Origin: Candidatus Saccharimonadota bacterium
Lineage (GTDB): Bacteria; Patescibacteriota; Saccharimonadia; Saccharimonadales; SLHW01
Length of the DNA: 64,000 bases
Direction: 5' to 3'
Assembly (NCBI GenBank): GCA_024635455.1
Contig: JAGXIU010000003.1
Span: forward strand, 226,446 to 290,445
This document shows, one piece after another, positions 1,849 through 47,236 of the stretch (position 1 is the first letter of the stretch; every line of letters begins with the position of its first letter). The translations under genes and the position numbers were made by a program. The notes under the pieces are model-generated. The model made no database searches and was not told where the DNA came from. It was given only the letters and a program-made list of their open reading frames with translations.

Positions 1849-1849
1849 C

Positions 1850-4097: not shown

Positions 4098-4115
4098 TGA
4101 TAGATCTCCATGCAT

Positions 4116-6528: not shown

Positions 6529-6546
6529 AATATGTGTTCGGCCTCC

Positions 6547-7161: not shown

Positions 7162-7165
7162 TATG

Positions 7166-7585
7166 CTATACCCTTCGTGCCTTTCTTGGACGGCATCCAC
7201 CATGCGCAACTCCAGTTACATCAATAATAGATTCCACTACAATATCGTGATTCTGCATCGCACGGACAACTGCTTCACGTCCGAGCCCAACGCCTCTAAT
7301 GTAGGCGTCCACCTTGGAGGTGCCATGTAGTTGCTTTAATGATTCAGCTGCTTTATCTGCGGCAACTTGAGCAGCATAAGCAGTAGATTTTTTGCTCCCA
7401 CGGAAACCGCATGCGCCAGCGCTAGAGCTAACTAGTGCGCCACCGCTTTGATCTGTAAAGGTTACGATGGTGTTATTAAATGTAGCCAGTACATGCAGTT
7501 GTGCATACGGAACCGAACGCTTGGCTTTTTTTCGTCGAGCCTTCGCTGGGGCATCAGTTGTTGGTTTAGTAGTTTGTTCACTCAT
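7166..7585 (-). CDS. rpsK: 30S ribosomal protein S11
   Basis: S11 core (HVLATFNNTIVTFTD...GSKKSTAYAAQ). Confidence 0.96.
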   Translation of the reverse strand: MSEQTTKPTTDAPAKARRKKAKRSVPYAQLHVLATFNNTIVTFTDQSGGALVSSSAGACGFRGSKKSTAYAAQVAADKAAESLKQLHGTSKVDAYIRGVGLGREAVVRAMQNHDIVVESIIDVTGVAHGGCRPRKARRV

Positions 7586-7608
7586 AATTATATATACTCA
7601 GTTCCTTC

Positions 7609-7995
7609 CTACGTCTTGGTAGCAGCTTTCTTTTGTGTACCACCAACTGCAACACGTTTACCACGTCTTGTACGAGCATTTGTCTTGGTGCGCTGGCCTC
7701 TGCTAGGCAGATTTGATTTATGTCGTGTACCACGATAAGCATTGATATCTTTTAGACGTTTGATGTTTGTTGATACTGAACGCTGTAACTCACCCTCAAC
7801 GGTATAATCTTCGTTGATACATTCTTGGATTTTTGACAGTTCAGCGTCAGTAAGATCTTTAACACGAACAATCGGATCGATCTTCGTCTTTTCTAAAATC
7901 TGTGCACTATACGCTCGTCCAATACCATGAACATAGGTGAGAGATATTTGTACTTGCTTGTTATCTGGAATGACAACTCCTGATATACGTGCCAT
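7609..7995 (-). CDS. rpsM: 30S ribosomal protein S13
   Basis: MARISGVVIPDNKQVQISLTYVHGIG. Confidence 0.96.
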   Translation of the reverse strand: MARISGVVIPDNKQVQISLTYVHGIGRAYSAQILEKTKIDPIVRVKDLTDAELSKIQECINEDYTVEGELQRSVSTNIKRLKDINAYRGTRHKSNLPSRGQRTKTNARTRRGKRVAVGGTQKKAATKT

Positions 7996-7998
7996 ACG

Positions 7999-8115
7999 TT
8001 ACCCCTGCCTCTGTTTGTGCTTCGGTTTATACTTATTGATAACATAGAGCCTACCTTTGCGGCGGACGATCTTGTCATCTGGACTAATTTTCTTAACACT
8101 TGCACGCACTTTCAT
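7999..8115 (-). CDS. rpmJ: 50S ribosomal protein L36, Cys-less (C-minus) form
   Basis: This ORF is absent from the ORF track (under 60 aa), so I translated it by hand: [44 protein letters not shown] lies 9 nt upstream. It sits in the canonical infA-rpmJ-rpsM position. Confidence 0.9.
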
Positions 8116-8167
8116 GCGGATCATCTCCTTTTAACTCAGCGATGACACACTGCTTAATTTAATAAAG

Positions 8168-8389
8168 TTACTTGTTACGGTAGGTTATCCGACCCTTCGT
8201 AAGATCGTAAGGCGTCAACTCAACCTTGACCGTGTCTCCGGGTACAAGACGGATGTAGTACTTCCGCATCTTACCGGCAACATGAGCTATGATTTCATGG
8301 CCATTCTCAAGCTCAACCCGAAACTGTGTTCCAGGTAATGCCTCGGTGATTACACCGTCCAACTCGATTACTTCCTTATTTTTGGCCAT
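8168..8389 (-). CDS. infA: translation initiation factor IF-1
   Basis: 73 aa, S1-like fold sequence ([36 protein letters not shown]). Confidence 0.96.
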
Positions 8390-8408
8390 AAAAATATAAC
8401 AAGTCTTG

Positions 8409-8437
8409 ATTATACCAGTAAGTAACAGATAATGTAA
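8409..8437 (-). promoter_or_regulatory. putative internal promoter TTACAT-17-TATAAT upstream of infA
   Basis: -35 at 8437-8432 and -10 at 8414-8409. There are 19 nt to the ATG with no SD. Confidence 0.45.
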
Positions 8438-8472
8438 AGTGTTTTTTTATTATTTGCATATCTATAAAACCT

Positions 8473-9987
8473 TTACTCTTTATCTTTATCTGATTTTTTT
8501 GAAAACTTAGAGAGGAAACGACGCTTTGCCTTTGGCCCATCAGTACTTTTTTCGTCCCCAATTTCGCCAAAGAAATCAGGTTGTTCATATTGATCGTATG
8601 TAATCATGAGTGCACGAGACTCTATCTTTCTTAGGGACTCAAGTGCGACGGCTACAAGAATCAAAATACTAGTACCAGAAATAGCTAGGTTATTACCAAT
8701 AAATACTTCGCCAATTATTGGTATGGTAGCAATAAGACCAAGTGCAGTCGCACCAAATAAGGTCAATCGATTCACGACAAGACTAAGATACTTTTCAGTC
8801 TCTTTCCCGGGCCGAATATCTGCTATGAAGCCACCTTGTTTCTGAAGGTTTTCAGCAATCTCTTTGGCGTTAAACGTAATATTTGTATAGAAGAATGTGA
8901 AAGCAAATACTAATATGAAATACACGACAGGATAGATATAGAAAGTCAGGCCTCCTTCAATAAATCCTTGCGCAGTTGGCGGTGCAAACCACTCTGATAG
9001 ATTGGTACCGAGTCGCTGCCAATCTGCGTTTGCAGAACTCGTTAGCAGCTGACCGGCAAAACTAGGAATGCTCAAGAAAGCCACAGCAAATATAATCGGT
9101 ATAACTCCGGCTGTAATCATTTTGACCGGTAGCGTCGTTGTGACACCGCCATATGCACGGTTACCTTGCACCCGCTTGGCATAATTAATTGTAAGCTGAC
9201 GTGAAGCTTCGTTTAGCTTCACAACAAGTACAGTTAATAGAATGACCGAGAAGAGTAGTATAGAAGCCACAATAAGTTGTGTTTGATTAATCGGCAAAGA
9301 AAAACCAAATAGATTTAGCGAGCTTGTGTCATCAATAATTGAACCACCTAGAGAACTAATAGTAGTTGGAAGCTCACTCACAATACTAGCTGTGATGAGT
9401 AGTGAAATACCGTTACCAACCCCTTGTTCTGTAATCAGCTCACCGAGCCACATCAGGATCATGGCGCCAGCCGTCAAAGCACTTACCATAAGCACCCACT
9501 GCCAAATACTCACGCCAGCTGATATTTCGGTTACTGAGCCACCTTCAATTGAAGCAACGGCTTGACGTACTAGGAAAATCGCACCGATTGACTGAATGAT
9601 AGCAAGTGGAAATGTCAGAATACGAGTGTATTGATTTATCTTTTTTCTACCGAACTCGCCCTCTTTGTTAAGCGCTTCAAGCTTCGGAATTGCACGCGTT
9701 AATAACTGCATAATAATGGACGCGTTAATATATGGGATAAGTCCGACAATCATTATTGAGAAGTTTGCTAAGGCTCCGCCAGAAGCTAAGTTAAGTAGGC
9801 CAAGAAATTGTGATCCGCCTCCAGCAGTCAGAACCGTGTCAAGAATCTCACGTAACGACTGTGGGTCACTGACCGGAATTGGTATAACCGCCATAAGACG
9901 AAATACGAGTATAATACCTAGCACTGCCAAAAGTCGACTACTCATATCCGAGTTTCGAAGTGATTTCCAAATTATCTTCCAGTTCAT
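8473..9987 (-). CDS. secY: preprotein translocase subunit SecY, with a charged C-terminal tail of about 45 aa
   Basis: 504 aa, multi-pass membrane protein, in the conserved position after rplO. Confidence 0.95.
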   Translation of the reverse strand: MNWKIIWKSLRNSDMSSRLLAVLGIILVFRLMAVIPIPVSDPQSLREILDTVLTAGGGSQFLGLLNLASGGALANFSIMIVGLIPYINASIIMQLLTRAIPKLEALNKEGEFGRKKINQYTRILTFPLAIIQSIGAIFLVRQAVASIEGGSVTEISAGVSIWQWVLMVSALTAGAMILMWLGELITEQGVGNGISLLITASIVSELPTTISSLGGSIIDDTSSLNLFGFSLPINQTQLIVASILLFSVILLTVLVVKLNEASRQLTINYAKRVQGNRAYGGVTTTLPVKMITAGVIPIIFAVAFLSIPSFAGQLLTSSANADWQRLGTNLSEWFAPPTAQGFIEGGLTFYIYPVVYFILVFAFTFFYTNITFNAKEIAENLQKQGGFIADIRPGKETEKYLSLVVNRLTLFGATALGLIATIPIIGEVFIGNNLAISGTSILILVAVALESLRKIESRALMITYDQYEQPDFFGEIGDEKSTDGPKAKRRFLSKFSKKSDKDKE

Positions 9988-12458: not shown

Positions 12459-12728
12459 TTACCAGCTCGACTTTGTTACGCCAGGTATCTCACCTTTGCT
12501 GGCATGTTCTCGAAATGCAATTCTTGATAATCCGAACTGTCTCATATAACTTCGTGCTCGGCCGGTTTGGCTACAACGATTGGTTCGACGAGTCGGCGAT
12601 GAATTACGTGGTAACTGATGCAATGCATCAAAGTCACCAAGTTCTTTCAGCTCAGCACGTTTCTTTTCGTACTTTGCTATCATCTTCATGCGCTTTTCGT
12701 CTTTTACTATCAATGATTTCTTCGCCAT
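12459..12728 (-). CDS. rpsN: 30S ribosomal protein S14, long non-zinc (C-minus) form
   Basis: 89 aa, C-terminus [39 protein letters not shown], with no CxxC pairs. Confidence 0.95.
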
Positions 12729-17082: not shown

Positions 17083-17417
17083 TACTTCTTCTCCTTGCGC
17101 TTGTTGGCTTTTTCGCTTGCCTCATCGATTGCCGCAAATACAGGAATATTGTCACCAGCCTTGATAGTTACGTACGCTCGCTTGACATCACGTCGTTTAC
17201 CGATAGTTGCACGGCCTCGCTTCTGGATCATTCGTTTGCGCTTACCTTTCGAGACACTAACATTTACTGCAATGACATTTACATCGAAACGGTCTTCTAC
17301 TGCTGCCGCAATTTGCTGCTTGTTGACGTCTGTAGGAACATCAAATACATAGACGTTCTTTGCATTACTTAGGTCATAAGCTTTTTCGCTAACTCTTGGT
17401 TGTAAAATCATACTCAT
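17082..17417 (-). CDS. rplW: 50S ribosomal protein L23
   Basis: ILQPRVSEKAY. The start is set at ATG 17417, with GGAGAG 5 nt upstream, directly abutting the rplD stop. Alternative starts are 17435 and 17411. Confidence 0.9.
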   Translation of the reverse strand: MSMILQPRVSEKAYDLSNAKNVYVFDVPTDVNKQQIAAAVEDRFDVNVIAVNVSVSKGKRKRMIQKRGRATIGKRRDVKRAYVTIKAGDNIPVFAAIDEASEKANKRKEKK

Positions 17418-18055
17418 CGCTTCTCTCCTAGCCAAGTGTCAATCGTTTCAAGTGCCTCTTTTTCAAGCAATATTGCATCAGCGTTTAAGACATCGTATAC
17501 GTTTAGGTACTGTGCCTGTACATAAATAACATTTGATATGTTTTTAGTCGCTCGGATTAAATCATCGTTCTTATCTTTCACAACAACGAGAGTTGATCCA
17601 GCTAAATTCATTTTATCCAACAATTGCTGGAATAGCTTGGTCTTAGCTTCTTTAAGCTTGATCTCTTCAATAACATGAACGATGCCACTGTCGAGTGCAA
17701 GACTAAGAGATTGCCGTAAAGCGGCCCGTTTTGCACCGGCGTGCATACGCTTGCTATGATTTTCGGCACCAGTTGGTCCAAATGTGATACCACCACCGCG
17801 CCAAATTGGGCTACGGATAGAACCTGCGCGAGCACGTCCAGTTCCTTTTTGCTTCCAAGGCTTTCGGCCTCCACCTCGTACATCGCCACGGAGCTTAGTT
17901 TTTGCTAAAGCTGAACGCCCGTTTGCCAAGTATGTCGTGTATGCTTGCTGCATAAGATCGTGCTTTTCAGGGATATTATCAAAAACTGTCTTATTGAGCT
18001 TTACCTGAGTGGTCGCTTTTGCGCCAGATTTTGTATATGTAGTTGGAGTTTTCAT
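17414..18055 (-). CDS. rplD: 50S ribosomal protein L4
   Basis: RGGGRKPWKQKGTGRARAGSIRSPIWRGGG. Confidence 0.96.
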   Translation of the reverse strand: MKTPTTYTKSGAKATTQVKLNKTVFDNIPEKHDLMQQAYTTYLANGRSALAKTKLRGDVRGGGRKPWKQKGTGRARAGSIRSPIWRGGGITFGPTGAENHSKRMHAGAKRAALRQSLSLALDSGIVHVIEEIKLKEAKTKLFQQLLDKMNLAGSTLVVVKDKNDDLIRATKNISNVIYVQAQYLNVYDVLNADAILLEKEALETIDTWLGEKR

Positions 18056-18056
18056 G

Positions 18057-18671
18057 CTAAGCCTCCCCCTTTATCATAACAATGCCTTTTTTTGGCCCAG
18101 GTACGGCACCAACGAGGCCAATGATGCCAAGTTCTTTATCGACAATAGCGACAGTAAGATTTTTCACCGTTACTTGCTCACCGCCCATTTGACCGGCCAT
18201 TTTTTTACCCTTGAAGATTTTCTGTGGGTACATAGATCCGATTGAACCGACTCGACGTGTAGCACCTTTAGCACCGTGTGTCTTGCGTTGTCTACTAAAA
18301 TTATGTCGCTTGATAGTGCCTGCCCAACCCTTACCTTTACTGGTAGCAGTTACAGAAACAGTATCGCCAACTGAAAAGACCTCTGAGGTTATCTGTGAAC
18401 CAACCTTGAGGTCTTCTGGAATTTGATCAACGCGAACTTCACGCATAATTTTTGCGTTAGCGTTTGATGGCTTTAGGTGACCAGCCTGAGGCTTCGTTTG
18501 TTGCTTTGATTCTTCCGCGCCAATCTGCAGAGCGGTATAACCGTCTGTTTCATTAGTTTTTATTTGCGTAATAACGCTCGGACTAGCGGAAAGCAACGTC
18601 ACAGCAGAAACTGTACCATCGTCTGTGATGATACTTGTCATGCCGACCTTTCTTGTAATAAGTGCTTTCAT
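18057..18671 (-). CDS. rplC: 50S ribosomal protein L3
   Basis: MKALITRKVGMTSI...KGKGWAGTIKRHNF. Confidence 0.96.
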   Translation of the reverse strand: MKALITRKVGMTSIITDDGTVSAVTLLSASPSVITQIKTNETDGYTALQIGAEESKQQTKPQAGHLKPSNANAKIMREVRVDQIPEDLKVGSQITSEVFSVGDTVSVTATSKGKGWAGTIKRHNFSRQRKTHGAKGATRRVGSIGSMYPQKIFKGKKMAGQMGGEQVTVKNLTVAIVDKELGIIGLVGAVPGPKKGIVMIKGEA

Positions 18672-18819
18672 AGTTAACTCTATATTCCCTGTTTATTCCC
18701 TGGTTTAATACTCAACTCCCTGAGCATAAAAATGCTTGGTTGCTCACTGGTTTCCATCAGTAGTTACCGATTAGACCTGTTGAACATACCAAGTACCAAA
18801 GTTATTGCTATACCAAGAC

Positions 18820-18849
18820 ACATTAGCAGACAAACACTACTTCTGTCAA
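18820..18849 (-). promoter_or_regulatory. putative promoter TTGACA-18-TAATGT for rplC and the downstream r-protein genes
   Basis: -35 at 18849-18844 and -10 at 18825-18820. It predicts a 5' UTR of about 140 nt before rplC. Confidence 0.5.
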
Positions 18850-18884
18850 GATGTTGCAAATTCTACATGTATATCAGGCTCAGT

Positions 18885-18918
18885 ATAAACCCGACACACA
18901 ATAGTCTGTCGGGTTTAT
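18885..18918. terminator. symmetric 12-bp hairpin, a possible bidirectional terminator or insulator
   Basis: ATAAACCCGACA (18885-18896) pairs with TGTCGGGTTTAT (18907-18918) around a 10-nt loop. Only short T/A runs flank it. Confidence 0.35.
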
Positions 18919-19163
18919 GAATGATTAATGTACACTTTATCAGAGAAGTTATTTCTGCCTATAAACATAAAGATACTGATAAATTACGCATTACATGCGT
19001 TTTATATTTATCATGCCTTGTCTATATATATTCTTACACTGATAGAGAGCTGCGTGCGCATTCATGCATAACAGCATTTTGCACTTGTTCACTACGCACC
19101 ATCACTGGAGCACAAAGCCACTCGTGCTTAATCCTAAAGGTTGCTATAAAATACATCTTGATT

Positions 19164-19655
19164 ATGCCAGAACAAGACCCATCTTTACGTTATATGCTGT
19201 CCGAGCTTTCAGGTGCTGGACGAAAAGCTTTTATAAATGTCCAACGACTGCGTTTGCTCGAAGCGCTAACAACGCTTGACAACTTACAAAAGCTTCATCA
19301 ATTCGATGGTCGAATTATTCCTGTCAGAAAACAAGAATTTATAACCAGTTTTTCTGTAGAAAAGAAATCAGATACGATGACACATTGGCACTATAATGTA
19401 AGGCATCTAGATAATCTGGACGTACCACTACGGCAGTCGAGTCTATACTATTCTTTTACGAAGGAAGCTGGTCGTGCGACATTATTCCAAAATGACCTAT
19501 CAGTAGACGATGCAGTTTATAACGCCACTATCTACCCCTTAGAGCAAGCTGAGCCAGATGAGCTAGGTGAAAACTTCCGAAAGATACGAAGATTTTCTGT
19601 CGGCCTTACAACACTAGCCCGAGAGGCAATCCGATCTAGCGCCCATGGCAGCTAA
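19164..19655 (+). CDS. hypothetical protein (163 aa), encoded antisense inside the S10 operon
   Basis: Plus-strand ORF. I place the start at ATG 19164 because the upstream 81 codons of the 244-aa track ORF are AT-rich and look non-coding. I see no TM segment or recognisable motif. Confidence 0.45.
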   Translation: MPEQDPSLRYMLSELSGAGRKAFINVQRLRLLEALTTLDNLQKLHQFDGRIIPVRKQEFITSFSVEKKSDTMTHWHYNVRHLDNLDVPLRQSSLYYSFTKEAGRATLFQNDLSVDDAVYNATIYPLEQAEPDELGENFRKIRRFSVGLTTLAREAIRSSAHGS

Positions 19656-19680
19656 GTAAAACTTAGCCAGAACCAGGTGG

Positions 19681-20193: not shown

Positions 20194-20224
20194 AAAAAAT
20201 ACCCCTGCCAAGTCGACAGAGGTA
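20194..20224 (-). terminator. intrinsic terminator after tuf
   Basis: Minus-strand RNA UACCUCUG-UCGACUUGG-CAGGGGUA (8 bp, one G.U) followed by UUUUUU. Confidence 0.65.
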
Positions 20225-20250
20225 TTAATTAGCTACTGGTTGAATGATTA

Positions 20251-25002: not shown

Positions 25003-28000
25003 TTAACTATCAAGTGCGAGCGCATCAGCTTCAGCCTTTGCCTCAGCTTGCCTTTCACGGTAACGGTAGCCAGTACCGACAGGAATCTTCCGCCCAAGTA
25101 TGACGTTTTCTTTGAGACCGTAAAGATTATCGACTTTTCCGCTGGTTGCAGCTGCTATCAGTACACGTGTTGTGTCCTGGAAGCTCGCTGCACTCAAGAA
25201 CGAATCTGTTGCCAAACTTGCTTTGGTTATACCAAGCAATAGCTGGTTGTACTGAATCAGTTCTTTCTTTGCTGCAGCAAGTTTATCGTTTGCCTCAACA
25301 ACAGCTTGTTTACTGACAACATCACCCGTTACAAACTCACTTCCGCCTGGGTCTTCGATTTGTACTCGAGAGAACATTTGTCGGACAATCACCTCAAGGT
25401 GTTTATCAGATATGTTTTGTCCTTGTGCTGCGAAGATGCGAAGGATTTCCTTCATGATGTAGCGTTGCGTAGATTCAACTCCTTGCAATTTCATCAGCTG
25501 TTGTAGCTGAATCGATCCATTGGTGAACCGTTGGCCAGCAATCACTTCATCTCCGTCCTGAACAGTAAGTTGTTTGAAGCCAGGGATTTCGTAGCGTGCT
25601 GAGCCCTTTCCAGCAGGAGTGATTAACACCTGTTTTTTGGTAAAGTTTACGATACCAGCAGCGGATGCAGTCAAAGGATTCTTGCCACCCTTTGCGCTCG
25701 CTACGACATCGCCCTTCACGACTTCTGTACCAGAGGCGACAGTCGGTTTGCGTGAACCGAGTTCGAGCTCAACCACTTCATCATCACCAGCTGTCACTTG
25801 GACGATATATTGGTTACCCTCTTCCCACGTTCGAACAACACCACTGATTTCACTGAGAAACGCTTGTCCCTTTGGCGTGCGGGCTTCGAAAAGCTCCTCG
25901 ACACGTGGTAGACCAGTCGTTATGTCCTCACCGGCAACACCACCTGAGTGGAAAGTCTTCAGTGTTAGCTGCGTACCAGGTTCACCGATACTCTGGGCAG
26001 CGATGACTCCAACCGGGTGAGCTATCTTAACCAGCTGTCCTGTCGCTGGGTCAATGCCGTAAGATTTTTGTGATATACCCTTAACAGATGTACAACTTAA
26101 TGCACTCATTATCTTGACGGCATCAAGTGTATTGTCATCTTGGATTGCTTCAGCAATTTCTTTGGTGATACGTTCACCTTTTTTCACATGCTTGCCAATG
26201 TTTTCTGCTGCATAGCGGCCTTCAAGACGATAAGCATACGCTACGCCGATTTCTTCTGCATCTGATCGGTAAATCGGGAAACCTGGATCTTCTGTTTCTT
26301 CATCTATGATGAATGCATCTTGACTTACGTCAACCAGTCGGCGCGTAAGATAACCTGAGTCGGCTGTCTTCAGCGCAGTGTCAATCATACCTTTACGTGC
26401 ACCACGAGTAGCGGTAAATGATTCAAGCGGTGTGAAACCTTTTTTGTAATTGGACTTGATAGGCAGCTCAATTGTACGACCGGAAGCATCTGGTACGAGG
26501 CCGAACATTCCAACAGCCGTATTCACCTGGCCAATATTACCTCGAGCACCTGACACAACTGACACAGCCATAGAGCTATCCTCATCAAGGAATTGTTCTG
26601 AGAGCTTCGCTAATACTTCCTTGTCAACCTTCTTCCATGTATCCAAGATTAAACGGTATCGCTCATCGTTAGTGATGAAACCCTCTTCAAATTGATCACT
26701 GATCTTTGCGACTTTTTCTTCACCTCCATCGATAAGCTTGTCGATACCCTTGATATCTCGGAAATCGTCGATACCAATTGATAGGCCAGATTTAGTTGCG
26801 TACTTAAAGCCAACGTCTTTGAGTGAGTCAGCAACCTCAGCTGTCTTCTCTTGACCATACATTTCATAGCAAAGTGCCATAACTGAAGAAAGCTTCTTCT
26901 TTGTCATAGCTTCATCTTGAAACGGAAAGTCTTCAGGAAATATTTCGTTGAACAACACACGACCGATGGTTGTCTTCAATGACTGACCTCGATAACGTAT
27001 CCTAATGTTTGTCTGTAGCTTAATCGAGCCGGCATCAAGTGCCATCAAGGCTTCGCCTAAGCTACTATATGCTGCGTTTTTCTTTTCTGCTATTCCAGGA
27101 CGATCGTAGGTTAAGAAGTAACAGCCCAGCACGATGTCTTGTTCAATATGCAAAATAGGTGAACCATCAGCAGGTTTTAGAAGGTTCTTGTTGCTAGCCA
27201 TTATGTCTCGCGCTTCAGCTTGTGCACCTTTTGATAGTGGTAGGTGAACAGCCATCTGGTCACCGTCAAAGTCTGCGTTAAATCCTTTACATACTAGTGG
27301 GTGAAGCTGAATTGCCTTACCTTCTATAAGCCGAGGACGAAATGCCTGGATAGATAGTCGGTGTAGACTTGGAGCTCGGTTCAAAAGTACAAACTTGTCT
27401 TTAATAACCTCATCAAGTGCATCCCAGACTTCGATCTCACCAGCATCGATCATCCGTGTTGCAGAACGAATATTATGAGCGAGTTCTTTATGAATTAGTT
27501 GTCCGATGACAAATGGCTTAAATAGCTCGAGTGCCATCATCTTCGGCAGACCACACTCGTCAATTGTTAATTCTGGACCAGCTACGATTACTGAACGACC
27601 AGAATAGTCAACTCGTTTACCGAGCAAGTTCTGTCGGAAACGACCCTGCTTTCCCTTCAATTGGTCAGAAAGACTTTTCAGGCGACGTCGTTGACCAGTA
27701 GCAGCTACTGCGCGACCGGAACGAGCACTATTGTTGTCAATCAAAGCATCAACGGCTTCTTGTAACATACGTTGTTCATTACGACATATAACTTCTGGCG
27801 CATTCAAATCAATCAGTTTCTTGAGTCGGTTATTTCGGTTAATAACTCGGCGGTAAAGATCGTTCAAGTCACTAGTTGCAAAGCGGCCACCAGTTAGTTG
27901 TACCATCGGTCGAAGGTCTGGTGGGATGACAGGGAGTACAGTCAACATAGTACTGCTAGGTTTAATACCAGCCTTATTCATGCTCTCCAGTAAACGTAGA

Positions 28001-28827
28001 CGCTTCATTATCTTCTTTTTACGTTGACCTTTTGCTTCTTCAGACTCAGCAGTCAAAGACTCTATGAGTTCATCAAGATCAACTTCCTCAAGAAGCTTTC
28101 TAATAGCACCACCACCCATGCCGACCTTGGCAAGCTCTCTGAGTGCATCAGGGAGTGCACGGTAATCGGTCTCGGATATAAGGTTTCGCTTCTCAAGTGA
28201 TTTCGCCTGTGTCTTGAACTCATCATACGACTCGCTCAGCTCATCAAGCTCTTTAGACTGCATAGCAGCAAGAACCTTGACGTCTGCATCTTCGGATTCT
28301 GCTTGCTTTTCATAGCGTTGCTTAACTGCTTCTTTCGCTGCATTAAATTCTGCTTCTTTATCGGCAAGAATCTGGTCTCGTTTTTCAGTATCTACTTCAG
28401 TAATCACATAGCTAGCGAAGTAAACGACACGTTCGAGATTCTTAACGGTGAGACCGAGCAATAGTCCAATAGCGCTCGGTGTACCTCGCAAGAACCAAAT
28501 ATGAGCAACTGGTGCAGCCAACGTAATGTGCCCCATACGCTCTCGTCGCACAATTGACTTGGTGACGATATCACCTTTTTTGTCAACGGCGGCTTCACGA
28601 GAACGAACACCTTTGTATTTAGCATCGTGTGGATTTATATCTTTAACAGGTCCGAAAATTCGCTCACAGAACAAACCATCACGTTCAGGTTTCTGGGTGC
28701 GGTAGTTAATCGTTTCTGGCTTGAGTACTTCTCCATGGCTCCAGTCTTGAATGTCCTGTGGACTAGCGACCGCGAGACGAACTGCATCAAATTCTGCTAT
28801 ATCGTTATCTGGTGTGTAGCGTTTCAT
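25003..28827 (-). CDS. rpoC: DNA-directed RNA polymerase beta-prime subunit
   Basis: 1274 aa, with the catalytic NADFDGDQM motif and the trigger-loop and bridge regions ([18 protein letters not shown]). Confidence 0.98.
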
Positions 28828-28829
28828 AG

Positions 28830-31800
28830 TTATGCTACCTCCTTTTCTTCACCTGTCGCAGAGGTGTCGGAAGAATCATCCTCACCCGACTCGCCTGCAG
28901 CCTTATCATTATCTTCATTCTTTACTGTTGTAGGGGTAGCATTACCATCAAGTTCTAATACATCGAACTCGTCATTGGCTGCGTCATCAGTTACATCTAC
29001 ATCAGAAGCAGATGGTTGCGGAACCTCCACTTCAGCTGGGTCATCGCCTTCATTTTTCACGTTTTCAGTTAAGACGGTTTCAGCGTCGATGACAGATTCT
29101 GATGTTACGAGGTCAACTTTTAGACCGAGGCCCTGTAGCTCTTTGACAAGCACGTTGAAGCTCTCTGGAACCTTTGGCCCAACAATTTCGGTCTGCTTGA
29201 TTATAGACTCGTAAGCCTTTGAACGACCGTAGACATCGTCAGATTTGATCGTCAGCATTTCTTGGAGTGTATCAGCTGCACCGTATGCTTCTAGCGCCCA
29301 CACCTCCATTTCTCCAAAGCGCTGTCCACCATTTTGCGCTTTTCCACCCAGTGGCTGCTGCGTCACCATAGTATATGGTCCGGTAGCACGTGCGTGTATC
29401 TTGTCAGCTATCATGTGGTTTAGCTTAATGGTGTACATGATGCCTACCGCAGTTGTCTCGTCGAATGGTTCACCAGTTCTACCGTCATACAGCTGTTGTT
29501 TTCCGTCTTCTGGTAGGCCAGCTTGTTTTAATAGCTCTTTAATCTTTGGTATCGGAACACCGTCAAATGATGGTGTGGCTACTTTCATGCCGAGTTTTTG
29601 TACAGCGGCACCAAGTGCAGTTTCATATAGTTGTCCGATATTCATACGACTCGGAACGCCAAGTGGACTCAAAATCATGTCGATAGGAGTACCGTCTTCA
29701 GTGTGAGGCATATCTTCCTCTGGAAGTATTCGAGCAATAACACCTTTGTTACCGTGGCGTCCACCGAGCTTATCTCCAACAGCAATTTTTCGCATTTGAG
29801 CAACATACACTTGTATCTGCATAATGACACCGGCTTTTAGCTCGTGTTCGTCTCGATTAAAGACCTTCACACCAACAACCTTGCCATGCTTACCATTGCC
29901 CATACGTTGTGATGTGTCGCGCACTTCTTTGGCCTTTTCGCCAAATATTGCTCGCAGAAGGCGTTCTTCGCTTGATAGTTCTTGCTCGCCCTTTGGCGTA
30001 ATTTTACCAACCAGGATATCACCTGGGTGCACTTCTGCACCGATGCGGACAATACCGTCCTCATCAAGGTGGCGGAGTGCTTCCTCGGACACATTTGGAA
30101 TATCGCGAGTGACCACCTCTGGTCCTAGTTTCGTCTCACGAACTTCTACCATGTAGTCGCTAATCTGAACCGAAGTTAAATCGTCGTTTTCAACCAATCG
30201 ACGGGAAATAATAACTGAGTCTTCAAAGTTATATCCATCCCATGACATAAATGCGGTTAAGATATCACGACCAAGAGCTAGTTCCCCATCCTCAATTGAC
30301 ATACCCTCAATAAGTGCATCGCCTTTTTTAACTTTGTCGCCAGAGTTTACGACTACTTTCTGATTAATGGCAGTGCTGTCATTGCTCCGCTCGAAATGAC
30401 GAGGCGTATAGACGACCTTGCCATCTTTGTAGGCAACAACAACTTTGTCAGCTGTCGCTTGAATAACCTCACCATCGTCGTGGGCTGTTATTAGTTGACC
30501 GGAATTTTGGGCAACAACTTCTTCGACACCTGTACCAACAATTGGAGCTTTTGGTGCTATCAATGGGACTGATTGTCGCTGCTGGTTACTGCCCATCAGA
30601 CTTCGATATACGTAGTTTTTCTCAATAAATGGAATTAACCCAGCGCTAGAACCAATAATCTGTTTTGGTGAAGCATCCATGTGTGTAACTTCATCAGCAT
30701 CAACCTCACCTGATATCAGTCTGTTCCGAGCTGGAATTCTTTCGTCTACGAAGTGTCCTTGGTCATCAATTTCTTGACCAGTACTGGCAATTACAGCTGC
30801 CGTCTCCTCGAATGCATCAAGAAATACTACTTCATCTGTAATCTTTGCCTTGACTGGCCAGGTTTTCTGAGCAGTGATTTTTGCAAGTTTTTTAGCATCG
30901 TCTTTGCTGATTTCTTTGCCAGCTTTTACGATTACTTTGCCTTCGGCGTCTTCGAGGTTAACAGAAGCAATATGACCAGGAGCATCTTTTGCAGTAACGC
31001 TGCTTATGACTTTGCGGTAAGGAGTCTCTATAAGACCGTACTCATTAATACGTGCGTAAGTCGCAAGGTTAAGAACGAGTCCAATGTTCGCGCCTTCTGG
31101 CGTTTCGACGGTACAGATTCGGCCGTAGTGAGTCGCATGCGCATCTCGAACCTCAAAACCTGCTCGTTCGCGCGACAGTCCACCAGGACCCATTGAGCTC
31201 AAACGCCTTTTGTGCGCGAGCTCTGACAATGGGTTCACCTGATCCATAAACTGTGAAAGCTGCGAGCTCGCGAAAAACTCACGTACCGCAGCAACAATTG
31301 GTCGTGCGTTAATCAGCTGCGCTGGAGTAACTGTCTCGATCTCCGACATACTCATGCGGTCCTTGGTGTTTCGTTCCATTCGCAATAAACCGATTCGGAA
31401 CTGTCTTTGAACAAGTTCGCCAACGAGCTTAATGCGTCGGTTTGCAAGTGAGTCAATATCGTCAGCCGGATCTTGTGTAATGTTTAGGCGAATTATTTCT
31501 GAAATTATTGCCGTAAGATCCTCGAGGCGCATAATTCTATTTTCTGATGTGTTCGGTACGTCAAGGTCTAAGCGCTTATTGAGCTTGTAACGTCCAACTC
31601 GACTGAAATCAAATCGCTTGAAGTTATAAAACATATTTTCAATAAGGCTTCGTGCGTTATCTACCGTAGCTAAGTCACCAGGGCGTAATCGACGATACAC
31701 TTCAATTAATGCCTCATTTGTTGTCTTCGTAGGGTCTTTTTCGAGGGTCGCTTCGAGGTAAGAAGACTTCCCTTGATCAACGTGCTTAAACGTACTCTTC

Positions 31801-32411
31801 ATGAGTGCATCATTCATGCCCAACGCACGAAGGAGTGTAGTGACAGGGATTTTACGCTTTCGGTCAATCTTTACGTAGAGAGCGCCGTTGCTGGCAGTCT
31901 CAAACTCTAACCAAGCACCACGACCTGGAATTACCTTGGCACCATATAGTCCGGTACCGCTTGAGTTATCAGCTGTAAAGAATACACCAGCAGAACGAAT
32001 AAGCTGAGATACAACAACACGCTCGGCACCATTTATTACAAAAGTGCCTCTGTCGGTCATCCATGGATAATCACCGAGGTAGATTTCTTGATCTTTGATC
32101 TCACCAGTTACCTTGTTGGTGAGCTCAACGGTTGCCTTAAGTGGCGCTTCGAAGCTGACGTTATTTTCGCGAGCTTCTGCTTCAGTGATTTTTGGATCCT
32201 CGAAGTGATAGTCTTTGAACTTAATTGATAATTTTGTGCCTGTGTAGTCTTCAATTGAGCCCACTTCGGCGAATAGCTCACCGAGGCCTTCTTCTATGAG
32301 CCACTGAAAAGATCGATTCTGGTGATCGATCAAATTTGGCATATCGACGATGTTTTCGGATTTAGTAAAGTATGTTCGTTTTGCTGCTGTAGACTTGGTA
32401 ACTTTGGACAT
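28830..32411 (-). CDS. rpoB: DNA-directed RNA polymerase beta subunit, with an acidic C-terminal tail of about 90 aa
   Basis: 1193 aa, with conserved beta motifs (GRHGNKGV, GGQRFGEMEVWALEAYGA). Confidence 0.98.
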   Translation of the reverse strand: MSKVTKSTAAKRTYFTKSENIVDMPNLIDHQNRSFQWLIEEGLGELFAEVGSIEDYTGTKLSIKFKDYHFEDPKITEAEARENNVSFEAPLKATVELTNKVTGEIKDQEIYLGDYPWMTDRGTFVINGAERVVVSQLIRSAGVFFTADNSSGTGLYGAKVIPGRGAWLEFETASNGALYVKIDRKRKIPVTTLLRALGMNDALMKSTFKHVDQGKSSYLEATLEKDPTKTTNEALIEVYRRLRPGDLATVDNARSLIENMFYNFKRFDFSRVGRYKLNKRLDLDVPNTSENRIMRLEDLTAIISEIIRLNITQDPADDIDSLANRRIKLVGELVQRQFRIGLLRMERNTKDRMSMSEIETVTPAQLINARPIVAAVREFFASSQLSQFMDQVNPLSELAHKRRLSSMGPGGLSRERAGFEVRDAHATHYGRICTVETPEGANIGLVLNLATYARINEYGLIETPYRKVISSVTAKDAPGHIASVNLEDAEGKVIVKAGKEISKDDAKKLAKITAQKTWPVKAKITDEVVFLDAFEETAAVIASTGQEIDDQGHFVDERIPARNRLISGEVDADEVTHMDASPKQIIGSSAGLIPFIEKNYVYRSLMGSNQQRQSVPLIAPKAPIVGTGVEEVVAQNSGQLITAHDDGEVIQATADKVVVAYKDGKVVYTPRHFERSNDSTAINQKVVVNSGDKVKKGDALIEGMSIEDGELALGRDILTAFMSWDGYNFEDSVIISRRLVENDDLTSVQISDYMVEVRETKLGPEVVTRDIPNVSEEALRHLDEDGIVRIGAEVHPGDILVGKITPKGEQELSSEERLLRAIFGEKAKEVRDTSQRMGNGKHGKVVGVKVFNRDEHELKAGVIMQIQVYVAQMRKIAVGDKLGGRHGNKGVIARILPEEDMPHTEDGTPIDMILSPLGVPSRMNIGQLYETALGAAVQKLGMKVATPSFDGVPIPKIKELLKQAGLPEDGKQQLYDGRTGEPFDETTAVGIMYTIKLNHMIADKIHARATGPYTMVTQQPLGGKAQNGGQRFGEMEVWALEAYGAADTLQEMLTIKSDDVYGRSKAYESIIKQTEIVGPKVPESFNVLVKELQGLGLKVDLVTSESVIDAETVLTENVKNEGDDPAEVEVPQPSASDVDVTDDAANDEFDVLELDGNATPTTVKNEDNDKAAGESGEDDSSDTSATGEEKEVA

Positions 32412-33305: not shown

Positions 33306-33869
33306 TTAGTAAATACCGAGTTCTGCCATGACGTCTACGCTTGAATCGTCTACAGCAGACGTAAGTAACGAATCGCTGGAGTCATCGGCTGGCTCAGCAG
33401 TATCCTGTTTCTGTCGAACGGAACGAGCATGCATCGCCAGGCTCATCGCGTCAAGTGCAGTAGGCAGCTCGTAGGATTCGACATGTTCTCTAGTTGATTC
33501 ATCACCTTCAGTAAAGTTTTGCGCAGTTTCGAGGGCTTCTGCTGCTTCATCACGGACAGTCTTCATGGCAATCAATCGCCCGGAAAAAAATTGATAAATT
33601 CGCTGCCGAAGCGTTGTTTCTTGCTGTGATTCTTCGCTGACGATTTGGCTAGCTTGTTCTTGAAAAAATTCTGTAGCTTCGATTGATAACATAACTGTTG
33701 GCTGATCGACATCTCGAGCTGCTTCGCCACGAGCTGCTGCAATCTCAAGCAGGTGTGGCGTCTTTTTATCAGCTACGTTTTGGCAGACCTCTTCAGCGAC
33801 AATATCAAGTGCTTCGATAGAGTCACCGGATACTTCTATGCAATTATGTCTTGCATCTACCTCGAACAT
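33306..33869 (-). CDS. hypothetical highly acidic protein (187 aa)
   Basis: The ORF is tightly packed, 2 nt after the upstream 97-aa ORF. By my count it has about 39 Asp/Glu against 14 Lys/Arg. No motif recognised. Confidence 0.55.
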   Translation of the reverse strand: MFEVDARHNCIEVSGDSIEALDIVAEEVCQNVADKKTPHLLEIAAARGEAARDVDQPTVMLSIEATEFFQEQASQIVSEESQQETTLRQRIYQFFSGRLIAMKTVRDEAAEALETAQNFTEGDESTREHVESYELPTALDAMSLAMHARSVRQKQDTAEPADDSSDSLLTSAVDDSSVDVMAELGIY

Positions 33870-33871
33870 AT

Positions 33872-34165
33872 TTAGTCTATCGCCCCATCCTCTGGTGATT
33901 GTTCCACTATCGGCGCTTCTGTTCCACCATCGCCTTTAATCAACGTGTTTCTTAAGTCCAAGCTGCCTTTCGCGCTGCTGTGGCTGCTACTCATGATATC
34001 CGTATCCGAAAAGACGGCGCTCTCAAGCGCATTCTTACGATCCTCTACCATTTGCTCGGCGAACGGTCTTGTAGTGGCGTCAAGAGTAGCAATCAGCCTA
34101 CGTGCGGCTTGACGCGCGGCTCGGCTTAAAAGCCTTGGGCTGTCTCTAAATTCTTTGTGTTCCAT
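33872..34165 (-). CDS. hypothetical protein (97 aa) with a basic N-terminal helix and an acidic C-terminus
   Basis: The ORF is preceded by TTGTGC-17-TACTGT-9-ATG. No motif recognised. Confidence 0.5.
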   Translation of the reverse strand: MEHKEFRDSPRLLSRAARQAARRLIATLDATTRPFAEQMVEDRKNALESAVFSDTDIMSSSHSSAKGSLDLRNTLIKGDGGTEAPIVEQSPEDGAID

Positions 34166-45883: not shown

Positions 45884-47236
45884 CTACGATTTCAAGTAAG
45901 TGTTGAGTGCTGTACGTACGCTTGAAACACCCTTGTACTGCTTAGGCTGTGCTTTGCCTTGCAATACCGGGCCGACTGCCTCGTCGAACCCAAGTTTACG
46001 TGCTTCCTGAATTCGCTTATCAATATGGGGTACGTGTCGCACTTCACCCGATAAGCCAAGCTCGCCAAACACAACTGCATTCTTGCTTAGCTGCATTGAC
46101 TTTGCTGCAGAGGCAATTGCCATAGCTACAGCTAAATCACCGGCAGGTTCTTGTAGGCGTATGCCGCCGACAATATTCACGTATACATCCATATCAGCCA
46201 GCTTGAGCTTTGTGCGCCGCTCTAACATGGCAATGAGTAGCTGGAGCCGGTTCAAGTCCATACCGCTAGCGGCTCGTTTTGGATATCCATAATTGGTTTG
46301 GTTAACTAACGCTTGCACCTCAACCAGCAACGGTCGTGTTCCTTCCATGGTTGCCAATACCACCGATCCATCTGTTTGCTGCCGTTCGGCCAATAGCGCG
46401 GCTGATGGATTTTTAACGACTTCAAGTCCACTGCCTTTCATTTCAAAAAGAGCAGAATCTTCAGTCGAACCATACCGATTCTTGATTGCTCGCAGTATCT
46501 TAAAGCCACCGTATCTATCACCCTCAAGCTGTAATACGACATCAACGATATGCTCGAGTAGCTTCGGCCCTGCGATAGAGCCCTCTTTTGTAACATGCCC
46601 AACTAATATTAGCGCCGTGTTTGATTGCTTGGCTGCATAACTAAGCATCTTTGTGCTATTGGTAATTTGCGACATAGAGCCTGCAGCTGAGCTAATGTCG
46701 TTACAAGCGACTGTCTGAATAGAGTCTACGACCACTATGTCATAGTCACCCTGACTGATGGTGGCGGAGATATCGTCCGTTACATTAGTAGCGACGATAT
46801 GTAATAGATTAGAAGAAATACCGAGTCGTTTCGCGCGCAAACCCACCTGGTGAGTTGATTCCTCACCACTTATATAAAGCACCTGCTTGTTTTTGGCTAT
46901 AGCATGAGCAATTTGTAAGAGTATTGTGCTCTTGCCGATTCCGGGCTGACCAGCCAATAAGTTCACGCTACCTGCGACAAAACCACCTCCAAGTAGCACA
47001 TCAACATCAGCGATGGCTGTCTGCAGCCTTGGTTCATCGTGAGCGACAGCATCAGAAACTGAATCAGGTTTTAGAATACTTCCCGCTGAACTGTTCTTTG
47101 AGGTACCTGGCTTCGCGCCAACAATAACTGATTCCTCGAGAGTGTTCCATTCACCGCAGGTAAAACACTTCCCGCTCCAGCGTTGCGACTCACCGCCACA
47201 ACTGCTACATATATAGACTGTCTTATCCTTTGCCAT
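45884..47236 (-). CDS. radA: DNA repair protein RadA/Sms
   Basis: CSSCGGESQRWSGKCFTCGEWN zinc finger, GQPGIGKST Walker A, KNRYG, and a Lon-like C-terminal domain. Confidence 0.95.
   Translation of the reverse strand: MAKDKTVYICSSCGGESQRWSGKCFTCGEWNTLEESVIVGAKPGTSKNSSAGSILKPDSVSDAVAHDEPRLQTAIADVDVLLGGGFVAGSVNLLAGQPGIGKSTILLQIAHAIAKNKQVLYISGEESTHQVGLRAKRLGISSNLLHIVATNVTDDISATISQGDYDIVVVDSIQTVACNDISSAAGSMSQITNSTKMLSYAAKQSNTALILVGHVTKEGSIAGPKLLEHIVDVVLQLEGDRYGGFKILRAIKNRYGSTEDSALFEMKGSGLEVVKNPSAALLAERQQTDGSVVLATMEGTRPLLVEVQALVNQTNYGYPKRAASGMDLNRLQLLIAMLERRTKLKLADMDVYVNIVGGIRLQEPAGDLAVAMAIASAAKSMQLSKNAVVFGELGLSGEVRHVPHIDKRIQEARKLGFDEAVGPVLQGKAQPKQYKGVSSVRTALNTYLKS

Follow-up and report, generated by a model that had tools for sequence, protein, structure and literature searches.

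A remodelled, cysteine-less zinc-binding domain in the RNA polymerase β′ subunit of Saccharibacteria suggests a naturally zinc-free enzyme

The window, that is, the whole 64,000-nucleotide stretch of DNA that was analysed, contains the genes for both large subunits of RNA polymerase (RNAP) together with two further features that bear on transcript termination.

25003–28827, (−) strand: rpoC, RNA polymerase β′ subunit, 1274 aa, full length, from the ORF translation
28830–32411, (−) strand: rpoB, β subunit, 1193 aa, only one Cys; adjoins rpoC upstream in a shared operon
50926–52182, (−) strand: nusA, elongation/termination factor acting at the RNA exit channel beside the zinc-binding domain (ZBD); context only
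20198–20226, (−) strand: intrinsic-terminator-like hairpin with a 13-bp stem and a T-tract, directly 3′ of tuf

The rpoC gene lies directly downstream of rpoB and is followed by rpsL, rpsG, fusA and tuf, which is the canonical operon context, and the gene order around rpoC is identical in a deep relative (L001). Its product matches PF04997, PF00623, PF04983, PF05000 and PF04998 (Rpb1 domains 1–5) above the cut-offs over its full length, and the catalytic NADFDGD Mg-binding motif of β′ is intact at residues 517–523. The hairpin behind tuf hints that hairpin termination is still in use; it was the one convincing terminator in a scan that gave no significant overall enrichment (23 observed versus 16.9 ± 4.4 expected).

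Bacterial RNAPs are taken to share the N-terminal Cys4 site of β′ as a fixed feature, and the largest subunits of archaea and eukaryotes have counterparts of it; promoter-spacer DNA, nascent RNA hairpins, putRNA, Q/Nun-type factors and Rho all converge on the canonical ZBD. The β′ encoded here displays a homologue of this domain in which all four ligand positions are occupied by other residues.

28543–28650, (−) strand: remodelled Cys-less ZBD homologue, residues 60–95
28630–28632, (−) strand: P66 codon, aligned with ligand C70 of E. coli
28624–28626, (−) strand: D68 codon, aligned with ligand C72 of E. coli; Asp in 114/115 species
28585–28587, (−) strand: V81 codon, aligned with ligand C85 of E. 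coli; Val or Ile clade-wide
28576–28578, (−) strand: K84 codon, aligned with ligand C88 of E. coli; Asn, Glu, Lys or Ser across the clade

P66, D68, V81 and K84 are assigned to the ligand positions because phmmer alignments to the β′ chains of the PDB place them under the CxC...CxxC ligands, as printed for the Clostridial and actinobacterial chains in the segment running from kdwechc to cdrcgvev. The alignment is ungapped across the ZBD, with query residues 10–144 pairing with residues 14–148 of the E. coli chain at an offset of +4, and the conserved-Cys columns of this first site, when located objectively by alignment, are the same residues 66, 68, 81 and 84. The spacing from FGP to RRERMG amounts to 33 residues both here and in nearly all canonical β′ subunits. 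The original prediction had set these four residues at the zinc ligands of a domain of preserved length, and on both counts it agrees with the ungapped HMMER alignments to solved chains and with the constant spacing; its codon coordinates are right and the sequence that it quoted is matched exactly by residues 46–100.

The second zinc site of β′, which the original prediction had also listed as lost, is indeed incomplete.

26062–26295, (−) strand: former second zinc site, comprising the T845 region, C912, S919 and S922, from the ligand-column alignment

The conserved-Cys columns of this site, located by the same objective procedure, are residues 845, 912, 919 and 922. The only one of the E. 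coli ligands C814, C888, C895 and C898 to be left is the equivalent of C888 (C912), while S919 and S922 occupy the positions of C895 and C898, and the stretch equivalent to C814 has no Cys in residues 838–850. Cys was found at 919 or 922 in 0/120 of the closest homologues, and a lone Cys at residue 922 occurs in 2/111 more distant Cys-less relatives, none of which comes near a complete second site. Position 912 drifts among Cys, Ala, Ser and Thr in the clade and the near-universal Arg that precedes the site is replaced by Met or Leu; the surrounding frame, SxLS...G[IV]xxKSYG, is kept. The second site has been lost, with the ZBD Cys4 kept, in a few unrelated lineages (P0164, P0173, P0180 and P0209). 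This site (Zn2) has reportedly been implicated in β′ folding and assembly (Markov et al. 1999, Genes Dev).

The cysteine-less ZBD had been ascribed to this polymerase; it is present here, but it belongs to the whole Saccharibacteria clade as sampled and is missing from the other CPR lineages sampled. Cys is absent from all four ZBD positions in ~230 further distinct relatives (~46–100% identity) and in 114 GTDB species genomes, and nearly all Cys-less relatives are labelled Saccharibacteria, Saccharimonadales, Saccharimonas or Nanosynbacter. The first site is Cys-less in 120/120 of the closest homologues (74–100% identity) and in 111/111 additional proteins related to the most divergent Cys-less branch, among them a lineage whose β′ has ~1390 aa, and no intermediates with partial site-1 Cys were seen among these 111. 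The ZBD motif itself occurs in at least 120 GTDB species genomes. Neither Cys nor His is found at any ZBD ligand column in 115 species and ~235 proteins of the clade, and none of the Saccharibacteria sampled retains Cys4.

Outside the clade the picture is reversed. An exhaustive search confined the Cys-less state to the four nearest 50%-identity clusters, and among the 150 nearest cluster representatives, a survey that leaves room for independent zinc-free ZBDs elsewhere, all other N-terminally complete proteins retain Cys4; the β′ subunits of Peribacteria, Parcubacteria and the 'Patescibacteria group' retain both Cys4 sites. By pairwise alignment the four ZBD columns are Cys in 92–99% of 137–138 non-Saccharibacteria representatives, the exceptions being indel misalignments or N-terminal fragments. 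By multiple alignment CCCC is found in 105/111 non-Saccharibacteria sequences, and the remaining six comprise five proteins without an N-terminus and one indel case (P0267). The two alignments were used in place of a regular-expression extraction of the ZBD, which missed ~40% of the representatives. Because the ligand columns of the outsiders are near-uniformly Cys and the exceptions are explained, the Cys-less ZBD lies far beyond chance or ordinary variation. The Cys-less sequences form one clade in 50/50 bootstraps on 1029 columns from which both zinc regions had been excluded, and this phylogeny, as reconstructed from the sampled proteins, shows that the cysteines were replaced a single time, in the clade's ancestor.

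The replacement of the thiolates is part of a broader remodelling of the domain, in which ~13 of 33 normally conserved positions have changed together. In E. coli numbering the changes are aromatic68 to Ile, Cys70 to Pro, Cys72 to Asp, Gly73 to Ala, aromatic80 to Ser, Gly82 to Glu, Ile/Val83-84 to Ala-Ala, Cys85 to Val, Cys88 to Asn/Lys, Val90-Glu91 to Glu-Leu and Lys96 to Ile. The nucleic-acid-contacting residues K70, Y/F71, K72, R75, R77 and K83, which correspond to E. coli K74, Y75, K76, K79, R81 and K87, are kept, with K70, K72, R75, R77 and K83 conserved at 97–100% in the clade, and the net charge of the domain is +5.1 in the clade versus +5.4 in canonical proteins. The joint alteration of so many positions, which include the surface changes E. 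coli E69 to Asn, R77 to Gly, aromatic80 to Ser and K96 to Ile, and the subsequent freezing of the new sequence clade-wide could also be read as a change of ZBD function, in which the domain acquired a lineage-specific partner or escaped phage or host factors and the loss of zinc was a by-product; the E. coli ZBD is, after all, a known docking site of regulatory RNAs and proteins. Such a change is unlikely to be the explanation, as the generic DNA/RNA backbone contacts are all in place, the charge is unaltered and no candidate partner was identified. In addition, the unrelated and buried second zinc site was lost too, and this simultaneous loss implicates the metal rather than an interaction specific to the ZBD.

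A second possibility is that the ZBD has lost its thiolates but not its metal, with Zn, Fe or Mn coordinated by newly recruited His/Asp/Glu ligands from among H67, D68, E78, D82 or E86. In its favour, D68 occupies precisely one of the former ligand positions and is, like E78 (114/115 species for both) and D82 (115/115), almost invariant; H67 is conserved at 93% in the main clade. However, several lineages carry Phe, Tyr or Asn in place of H67, the ~1390-aa lineage has Asn, His or Ser in place of E78, and D82 is merely inherited, because canonical ZBDs carry Asp or Glu at this position. The other three former ligand positions display Pro, Val/Ile and a variable Asn/Glu/Lys/Ser, and no constant trio or quartet of ligands is left, which makes a substitute metal site quite unlikely.

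The residues D68, K70, K72, G73, R75, R77, E78, A80, D82, K83, G85, V88 and T89 are 97–100% invariant in 114 species, and in the same species the synonymous codon entropy of the ZBD is near maximal. Since near-invariant amino acids are here combined with saturated synonymous sites, codon comparison shows the remodelled ZBD to be evidently under strong purifying selection, functional and not decaying. Even in sequences with as little as ~50% overall identity, few stretches of β′ are as conserved as the ZBD, and its length is never altered within the clade. A decaying, functionless or disordered remnant, left in a reduced genome after loss of the zinc sites by drift, might be suspected from the small size of Saccharibacteria genomes, from the free variation of former ligand position 84 and of site-2 positions 845, 912 and 919, and from the low AlphaFold confidence in the ZBD; it is contradicted by this conservation and was rejected as very improbable. 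AlphaFold2 returned a pLDDT of <50 over residues 1–115 when residues 1–350 were modelled from a 64-sequence alignment, and a pTM of 0.41 with a pLDDT of ~57 over residues 61–90 when residues 1–1200 were modelled from 78 more diverse sequences. The catalytic core of the latter model (residues 481–532) likewise has a pLDDT of <50, and the low ZBD score therefore reflects a poor model and not disorder; a weak hint of a hairpin between residues 79–81 and 87–89 is visible in a low-confidence AlphaFold2 model. An error of sequencing or assembly, or a pseudogene, has practically no chance of being the cause and is refuted: an independent contig of 418 kb encodes an identical protein, six contigs from three sources encode one with 97% identity, the motif recurs in 250 distinct protein records and at least 114 species genomes, and the ORF is intact, with all catalytic motifs present, in a canonical rpoB-rpoC-rpsL operon.

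The loss of cysteine is concentrated on the zinc ligands. The ligand-column Cys of β′ fall from 7.0 of 7 in canonical proteins to 0.5 of 7 in the clade, whereas the universally conserved non-ligand C54, C425 and C513 are kept at 95–100% and the other Cys of β′ are only ~30% rarer (6.5 to 4.6 per 1000 aa). A general purge of cysteine was rejected on these grounds, and the retention of the conserved non-ligand cysteines therefore indicates that the zinc centres were removed specifically. Comparison with orthologues from other CPR rpoC neighbourhoods, of which few were shared, reveals a mild trend to fewer Cys (rpoB 1 versus 4, HisRS 1 versus 4, ClpP 0 versus 2, S7 0 versus 2). Three further genes of the window are relevant to the fate of other zinc sites.

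45884–47236, (−) strand: radA, with a complete CxxC-x10-CxxC zinc ribbon; a counter-example to general zinc-site loss
7999–8124, (−) strand: rpmJ, L36 of the non-zinc 'type B', no Cys
12459–12728, (−) strand: rpsN, S14 of the long non-zinc form, 89 aa

The S4 protein of the window is without Cys and there is no Cys cluster in δ′ or in the GspE/PilB-type ATPase. The original prediction had seen the ZBD as one case in a wider loss of structural zinc sites, together with the second β′ site, L36, S14, δ′ and PilB. This wider loss finds support only in part: the zinc ribbon of RadA is retained, and C-minus forms of L36, S14 and S4 are common in ordinary bacteria. As judged from the cysteine counts, the loss is aimed at particular zinc centres, with no general abandonment of zinc or cysteine.

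Thus it is probable that the β′ of this clade combines a zinc-independent derivative of the ZBD with a dismantled second site, the core RNAP being most likely without structural zinc. At the level of sequence the earlier proposal of a zinc-free ZBD is upheld, and it gains strength from the clade-wide conservation, from purifying selection and from the fact that the second site was lost in parallel. With more reserve, the balance tips slightly towards a fuller reading, in which Saccharibacteria RNAP would be the first recognised naturally zinc-free cellular multisubunit RNAP, both β′ Zn centres having been lost once in the ancestor of the clade and the ZBD having been re-engineered to a metal-independent fold with its nucleic-acid contacts kept, as an adaptation by which ultra-small epibionts cope with a shortage of zinc or with thiol-oxidising stress on the surface of the host. 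No earlier description of a Cys-less β′ ZBD was found in open-access PMC and bioRxiv full text, where publications on spirochete RNAP, on the erosion of RNAP in endosymbionts, on metallostasis and on defence between Saccharibacteria and their hosts had no bearing on the matter. The metal centre of the ZBD would have been replaced by side-chain packing, in keeping with the joint change of ~13 positions, through a small hydrophobic/polar core formed by I64, P66, V81, L/I87 and I92 with D68 as a cap. Such a mini-core would follow the route taken by the 'C-minus' zinc-ribbon ribosomal proteins, and the remodelled domain would keep its job at the RNA-exit channel as well as at the upstream DNA fork. 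The Val-Glu to Glu-Leu swap and the two lost glycines could instead reflect an altered local fold in place of a simple core replacement. A plausible selective driver is that an ultra-small epibiotic cell would depend less on zinc, or would be rid of Zn-thiolate centres that are labile to oxidants.

If the RNAP of Saccharibacteria is indeed zinc-free, zinc is dispensable for RNAP given about a dozen compensating substitutions, and this may affect termination, antitermination and the range of phage or host factors able to target the polymerase. It would provide a natural, co-adapted template with which to ask what the metal contributes to fold stability, redox sensitivity and regulation, in a clade that is medically and ecologically widespread (oral, gut, soil and groundwater), and would offer a testable link between metal/thiol economy and the epibiotic lifestyle. 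As a molecular synapomorphy, the Cys-less ZBD also sets Saccharibacteria cleanly apart from other CPR lineages, and it can flag mislabelled bins. Cultivable and genetically tractable Saccharibacteria exist, and the predictions of a zinc-free RNAP are therefore directly testable.

The ZBD of the clade resembles the canonical ZBD (E. coli C70/C72/C85/C88, Zn1) in its homologous place, identical length, contact residues, similar charge and near-identical flanks. In contrast, its four thiolates have given way to Pro, Asp, Val and Asn/Lys, ~9 other conserved positions have changed, and the domain is presumably zinc-free. Similarly, the second site (Zn2) is alike in its surrounding frame and differs in that three of its four ligands are gone in this genome. 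In E. coli, ZBD residues K74 and K87 contact spacer DNA, a ZBD deletion was not obtainable, and the '4CS' RNAP, in which the four ZBD Cys are changed to Ser, still forms and transcribes from lacUV5, yet performs poorly on promoters with a weak −35 element (bioRxiv 10.1101/2020.01.02.893370); the ZBD is also the putRNA docking site at the RNA exit (PMC9378689). Like the Saccharibacteria enzyme, 4CS is a bacterial RNAP without ZBD thiolate ligands, and one able to assemble and to transcribe from a strong promoter. In contrast, only its four Cys are changed, whereas the Saccharibacteria variant carries ~13 co-adapted substitutions and serves viable organisms as their only polymerase.

The C-plus and C-minus (zinc and non-zinc) forms of the ribosomal proteins L36, S14, L31, L33 and S18 were reportedly distinguished by Makarova, Ponomarev and Koonin in 2001. 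In these proteins a Cys4 ribbon or knuckle is replaced by a metal-free version of the same length with its function kept, as would be the case for the ZBD, which displays clear homology and equal length to its zinc-binding counterpart with the ligands substituted; the window itself has C-minus forms of L36, S14 and S4, the last of which is also among the C-plus/C-minus zinc-ribbon ribosomal proteins (PMC3087516). In contrast, the C-minus ribosomal proteins usually form paralogue pairs or are horizontally exchanged, are scattered across bacteria and are often Zur-regulated, whereas rpoC is here a single essential orthologue, converted once and fixed clade-wide in a subunit where Cys4 is otherwise near-universal. 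A parallel within the transcription machinery is provided by DksA2 and low-Cys DksA, variants of an RNAP-binding zinc-finger factor that do without zinc (PMC4850274; PMC11672702). DksA2 is likewise a component in which a Cys4 zinc finger has given way to a zinc-independent fold; unlike β′, it is an accessory-factor paralogue expressed under zinc limitation, and neither a catalytic subunit nor a clade-wide replacement.

All four cysteines of site 1, the ligand set of the zinc-binding domain (ZBD) at the N-terminus of beta-prime, are missing from the rpoC product of the window.

25003..28827, minus strand: rpoC, beta-prime, 1274 aa, with five Pfam Rpb1 domains and an intact NADFDGD catalytic motif
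28830..32411, minus strand: rpoB, immediately upstream of rpoC

The downstream neighbours of rpoC are rpsL, rpsG, fusA and tuf. Residues 46-100 as quoted in the original prediction are identical in the translated ORF, and the codons it assigned to P66, D68, V81 and K84 are correct when checked against that ORF. In a phmmer search of all PDB chains, residues 9-150 align to 76 distinct PDB beta-prime sequences, gap-free in the printed alignments, where the query segment sits under '...kdweChCgkykrirykgivCdrCgvev...'. The E. coli chain is matched with an offset of +4 (query 10-144 to chain 14-148), which places P66, D68, V81 and K84 at C70, C72, C85 and C88, the numbering of the E. coli ZBD ligands (bioRxiv 10.1101/2020.09.07.285775). 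A column counted as conserved Cys when 50% or more of 146 diverse non-Saccharibacteria cluster representatives aligned to the query had Cys there. At site 1 these columns are residues 66, 68, 81 and 84, with 92-99% Cys in the representatives and Pro, Asp, Val and Lys in the query, which retains Cys at all three non-ligand columns (residues 54, 425 and 513). Both the PDB alignments and the conserved-Cys columns thus bear out the predicted loss of all four ligands.

Lack of Cys at site 1 runs through the clade. The 120 best homologues (74-100% identity), nearly all named by their sources as Candidatus Saccharibacteria or Saccharimonadales (two are otherwise labelled), are all Cys-less at site 1 (PDVN in 88, PDVK in 17, PDIN in 12, with others rarer), and residues 919 and 922 are never Cys in them. 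An identical beta-prime lies on an independent 418-kb contig and a 97%-identical protein on six contigs from three sources; since the motif recurs in independent contigs and clade-wide, a sequencing artefact is excluded. A search from the cluster representative P0124, the most divergent Cys-less protein, yielded 111 further relatives (~46-53% identical to P0124), all Cys-less at site 1, two with a lone Cys at residue 922 and none with a two- or three-Cys intermediate at site 1. No relative keeping the canonical Cys4 set is therefore found among these 120 and 111 proteins. Among the P0124 relatives is a separate lineage of ~1390-aa proteins whose ZBD has diverged further (...NPFDTRFKGARGRNIAVDKKGAIV...). 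One genome per species in GTDB was also scanned with a degenerate DNA pattern of ~53 bits for F-C-E-[RK]-I-F-G-P-x-x-D-I-N-P. The motif is present at 120 loci at least. The matches listed come from gut, oral, soil, groundwater and reactor samples, and almost every one bears the name Saccharibacteria, Saccharimonadales, Saccharimonas or Nanosynbacter. The Saccharibacteria-type Cys-less motif occurs at the loci L042, L067 and L078, whose genomes bear the labels Dongiaceae, Candidatus Dormiibacterota and Candidatus Nomurabacteria and are probably mislabelled or contaminated bins; the motif could act as a diagnostic marker for mislabelled bins.

The gene order around P0124 matches that of the window (recG-rsmD-hisS-tig-clpP-rpoB-rpoC-rpsL-rpsG-fusA-tuf). 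Further features of the window are as follows.

18672-19680: unusual gap of ~1 kb between rpsJ and rplC
18921-19655, plus strand: 244-aa ORF inside this gap, with 6 Cys and no Pfam match
33306-34165 and 3828-4115, minus strand: ORFs of 187, 97 and 95 aa with no Pfam match

The 187- and 97-aa ORFs separate clpP from tig, where gene order is conserved apart from them. L001, a contig of a deep relative, likewise carries additional genes in its tuf-rplC interval; its rpoB and tuf (6525-9981 and 17311-18332) each appear as a pair of neighbouring ORF calls, probably through indel errors of that assembly and not as real split genes.

Beta-prime residues 1-1000 were searched exhaustively with phmmer against the representatives of 1.84 billion clusters at 50% identity, which gave 30,021 homologues. 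Among the best 150 of these, the Cys-less ones are the top four alone (P0121-P0124, 54-59% identity); P0121 represents 495 sequences clustered at 90% identity, on contigs that reach 809 kb. Site 1 is conserved as CxC...CxxC in every other N-terminally complete representative of the 150, the few apparent exceptions being indel misalignments or N-terminal truncations. The named retainers include Dehalococcoidia, Candidatus Peribacteria, Candidatus Parcubacteria/Paceibacterota and two 'Patescibacteria group' bacteria, the last three of which place canonical sites in other CPR lineages. In a neighbour-joining tree of 1029 well-occupied columns, with the ZBD and both site-2 stretches removed, the 21 sampled Cys-less sequences form one clade in 50/50 bootstraps, for which one loss in the Saccharibacteria ancestor would be the simplest history.

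These 21 sequences were compared column by column with 105 canonical beta-primes.

Changes in the ZBD, by query residue (E. coli residue in brackets), from canonical beta-primes to the Saccharibacteria clade
64 (68): Tyr/Trp/Phe to Ile
65 (69): Glu to Asn
66 (70): Cys to Pro
68 (72): Cys to Asp
69 (73): Gly (100/105) to Ala/Thr/Ser
76 (80): Tyr/Phe/His to Ser
78 (82): Gly (91/105) to Glu
79-80 (83-84): Ile/Val, Val/Ile to Ala, Ala
81 (85): Cys to Val
84 (88): Cys to Asn/Lys
86-87 (90-91): Val-Glu (102/105, 86/105) to Glu-Leu
92 (96): Lys/Arg to Ile

The residues kept (E. coli in brackets) are K62, D63, K70 (K74), Y/F71 (Y75), K72 (K76), R75 (K79), R77 (R81), D82, K83 (K87), G85, V88, T89 and V93-R94-R95, and the net side-chain charge of residues 60-95 is +5.1 in Cys-less against +5.4 in canonical proteins. 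In E. coli, the lysines K74 and K87 touch the promoter spacer on its non-template strand (bioRxiv 10.1101/2020.01.02.893370), and putRNA docks at the RNA exit on the ZBD surface around L78/K79 (PMC9378689). With its basic surface untouched, the domain is therefore expected to keep its grip on upstream DNA within open complexes and to form part of the wall of the RNA exit channel. The window encodes NusA and the following element.

20198-20226, minus strand: strong intrinsic-terminator-like hairpin, 13-bp stem and T-rich tail, immediately downstream of tuf

The NusA gene and this hairpin are consistent with ordinary exit-channel function; a terminator scan of the window as a whole gave no significant result.

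Across 114 species-level genomes and the window, D68, K70, K72, G73, R75, R77, E78, A80, D82, K83, G85, V88 and T89 are 97-100% invariant with synonymous-codon entropy near its maximum, a set in which residues 53-60 and 63-66, being fixed by the DNA search pattern, are not independent evidence of conservation. The protein searches, free of that constraint, gave the same result. This combination of near-invariant amino acids and near-maximal synonymous entropy rules out a decaying remnant and points clearly to a functional domain. Residue 84 varies across the clade (Asn, Glu, Lys, Ser) and is thus probably an exposed position instead of a structural replacement.

The coordinated substitutions suggest that side-chain packing replaces the Zn(Cys)4 centre. 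Pro66 would make the first knuckle stiffer, Asp68 could serve as a cap or accept a hydrogen bond, and Ile64, Val81, Leu/Ile87 and Ile92 may form a small hydrophobic core, while the two glycines of the tight zinc knuckles would no longer be needed. Two AlphaFold2 runs on the Cys-less beta-prime gave poor models. Metal binding through a carboxylate/His site is unlikely, as H67 and E78, its possible donors, are inconstant across the Cys-less clade and three ex-ligand positions hold Pro, Val and a variable residue. An engineered E. coli RNAP with the four ZBD Cys changed to Ser (4CS) assembles and is active on a strong promoter, but is weak where the -35 element is poor (bioRxiv 10.1101/2020.01.02.893370). 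Zinc is therefore unnecessary for catalysis, yet its uncompensated loss is costly, a cost that would fit a co-adapted substitution set in the Saccharibacteria protein. Zinc scarcity may be the selective cause, or thiolates that are labile to oxidants, evasion of factors that target the ZBD, or drift accompanied by compensation.

The second zinc site, also predicted to be lost, is dismantled as well. Its conserved-Cys columns (residues 845, 912, 919 and 922) are Thr, Cys, Ser and Ser in the query, and the ex-ligands drift within the clade (Cys/Ala/Ser/Thr at 912; Pro, Ser and others at 919). The site is remodelled beyond its ligands, as a further residue that changed throughout the clade shows.

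26107-26109, minus strand: residue 907, preceding the first retained site-2 ligand, near-universal Arg (97/105), Met/Leu throughout the Cys-less clade

Four non-Saccharibacteria lineages (P0164, P0173, P0180, P0209) lack the equivalents of E. coli C888/C895/C898 and keep the ZBD Cys4. Beta-prime houses both of the zinc ions known in bacterial core RNAP; with both sites dismantled, the Saccharibacteria RNAP is, on sequence grounds, probably a zinc-free enzyme.

Cysteines in the seven alignable ligand columns fall from a mean of 7.0 in canonical beta-primes to 0.5 in the Cys-less clade, C54, C425 and C513 are kept in 95-100% of the clade, and other beta-prime Cys fall from 6.5 to 4.6 per 1000 residues. 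Many delta-prime homologues carry a tetracysteine zinc module. The window genes for delta-prime, a GspE/PilB-type ATPase and RadA are as follows.

57641-59242, minus strand: GspE/PilB-type ATPase, no cysteine at all
1009-1923, minus strand: delta-prime, no Cys cluster
45884-47236, minus strand: RadA, complete CxxC-x10-CxxC zinc ribbon kept

Among ribosomal proteins, L36 is the non-zinc 'type B', S14 the long non-zinc form and S4 without Cys; such C-minus (non-zinc) variants are commonplace in many bacteria and carry little weight for a zinc-loss pattern. The wider loss of zinc sites proposed for the window is partly supported: the second beta-prime site is lost, L36 and S14 are of non-zinc type, and delta-prime and PilB have no Cys cluster, but the ribbon of RadA is intact, unlike many canonical structural zinc sites that are absent from the window. 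Compared with other CPR, the window orthologues of rpoB and HisRS have 1 Cys against 4 in each case (few orthologues compared); rpoB (28830-32411, minus strand) has a single cysteine in 1193 residues, and that of L123, a Cys4-retaining Patescibacteria locus, has four. The tendency is to dispense with structural zinc sites, with a modest cysteine economy, and zinc is not abandoned.

A Cys-less beta-prime ZBD was not found described in open-access PMC and bioRxiv full text; as Saccharibacteria are cultivable, the reading is directly testable. Conversion of a Cys4 zinc ribbon to a metal-free version is a familiar evolutionary theme, as in C-plus (zinc) and C-minus ribosomal proteins. Examples include the zinc and non-zinc forms of S4 (PMC3087516) and the zinc-independent DksA2 (PMC4850274, PMC11672702). 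In contrast to these, the Saccharibacteria case concerns a single essential catalytic subunit, converted once and fixed clade-wide, together with its second zinc site.
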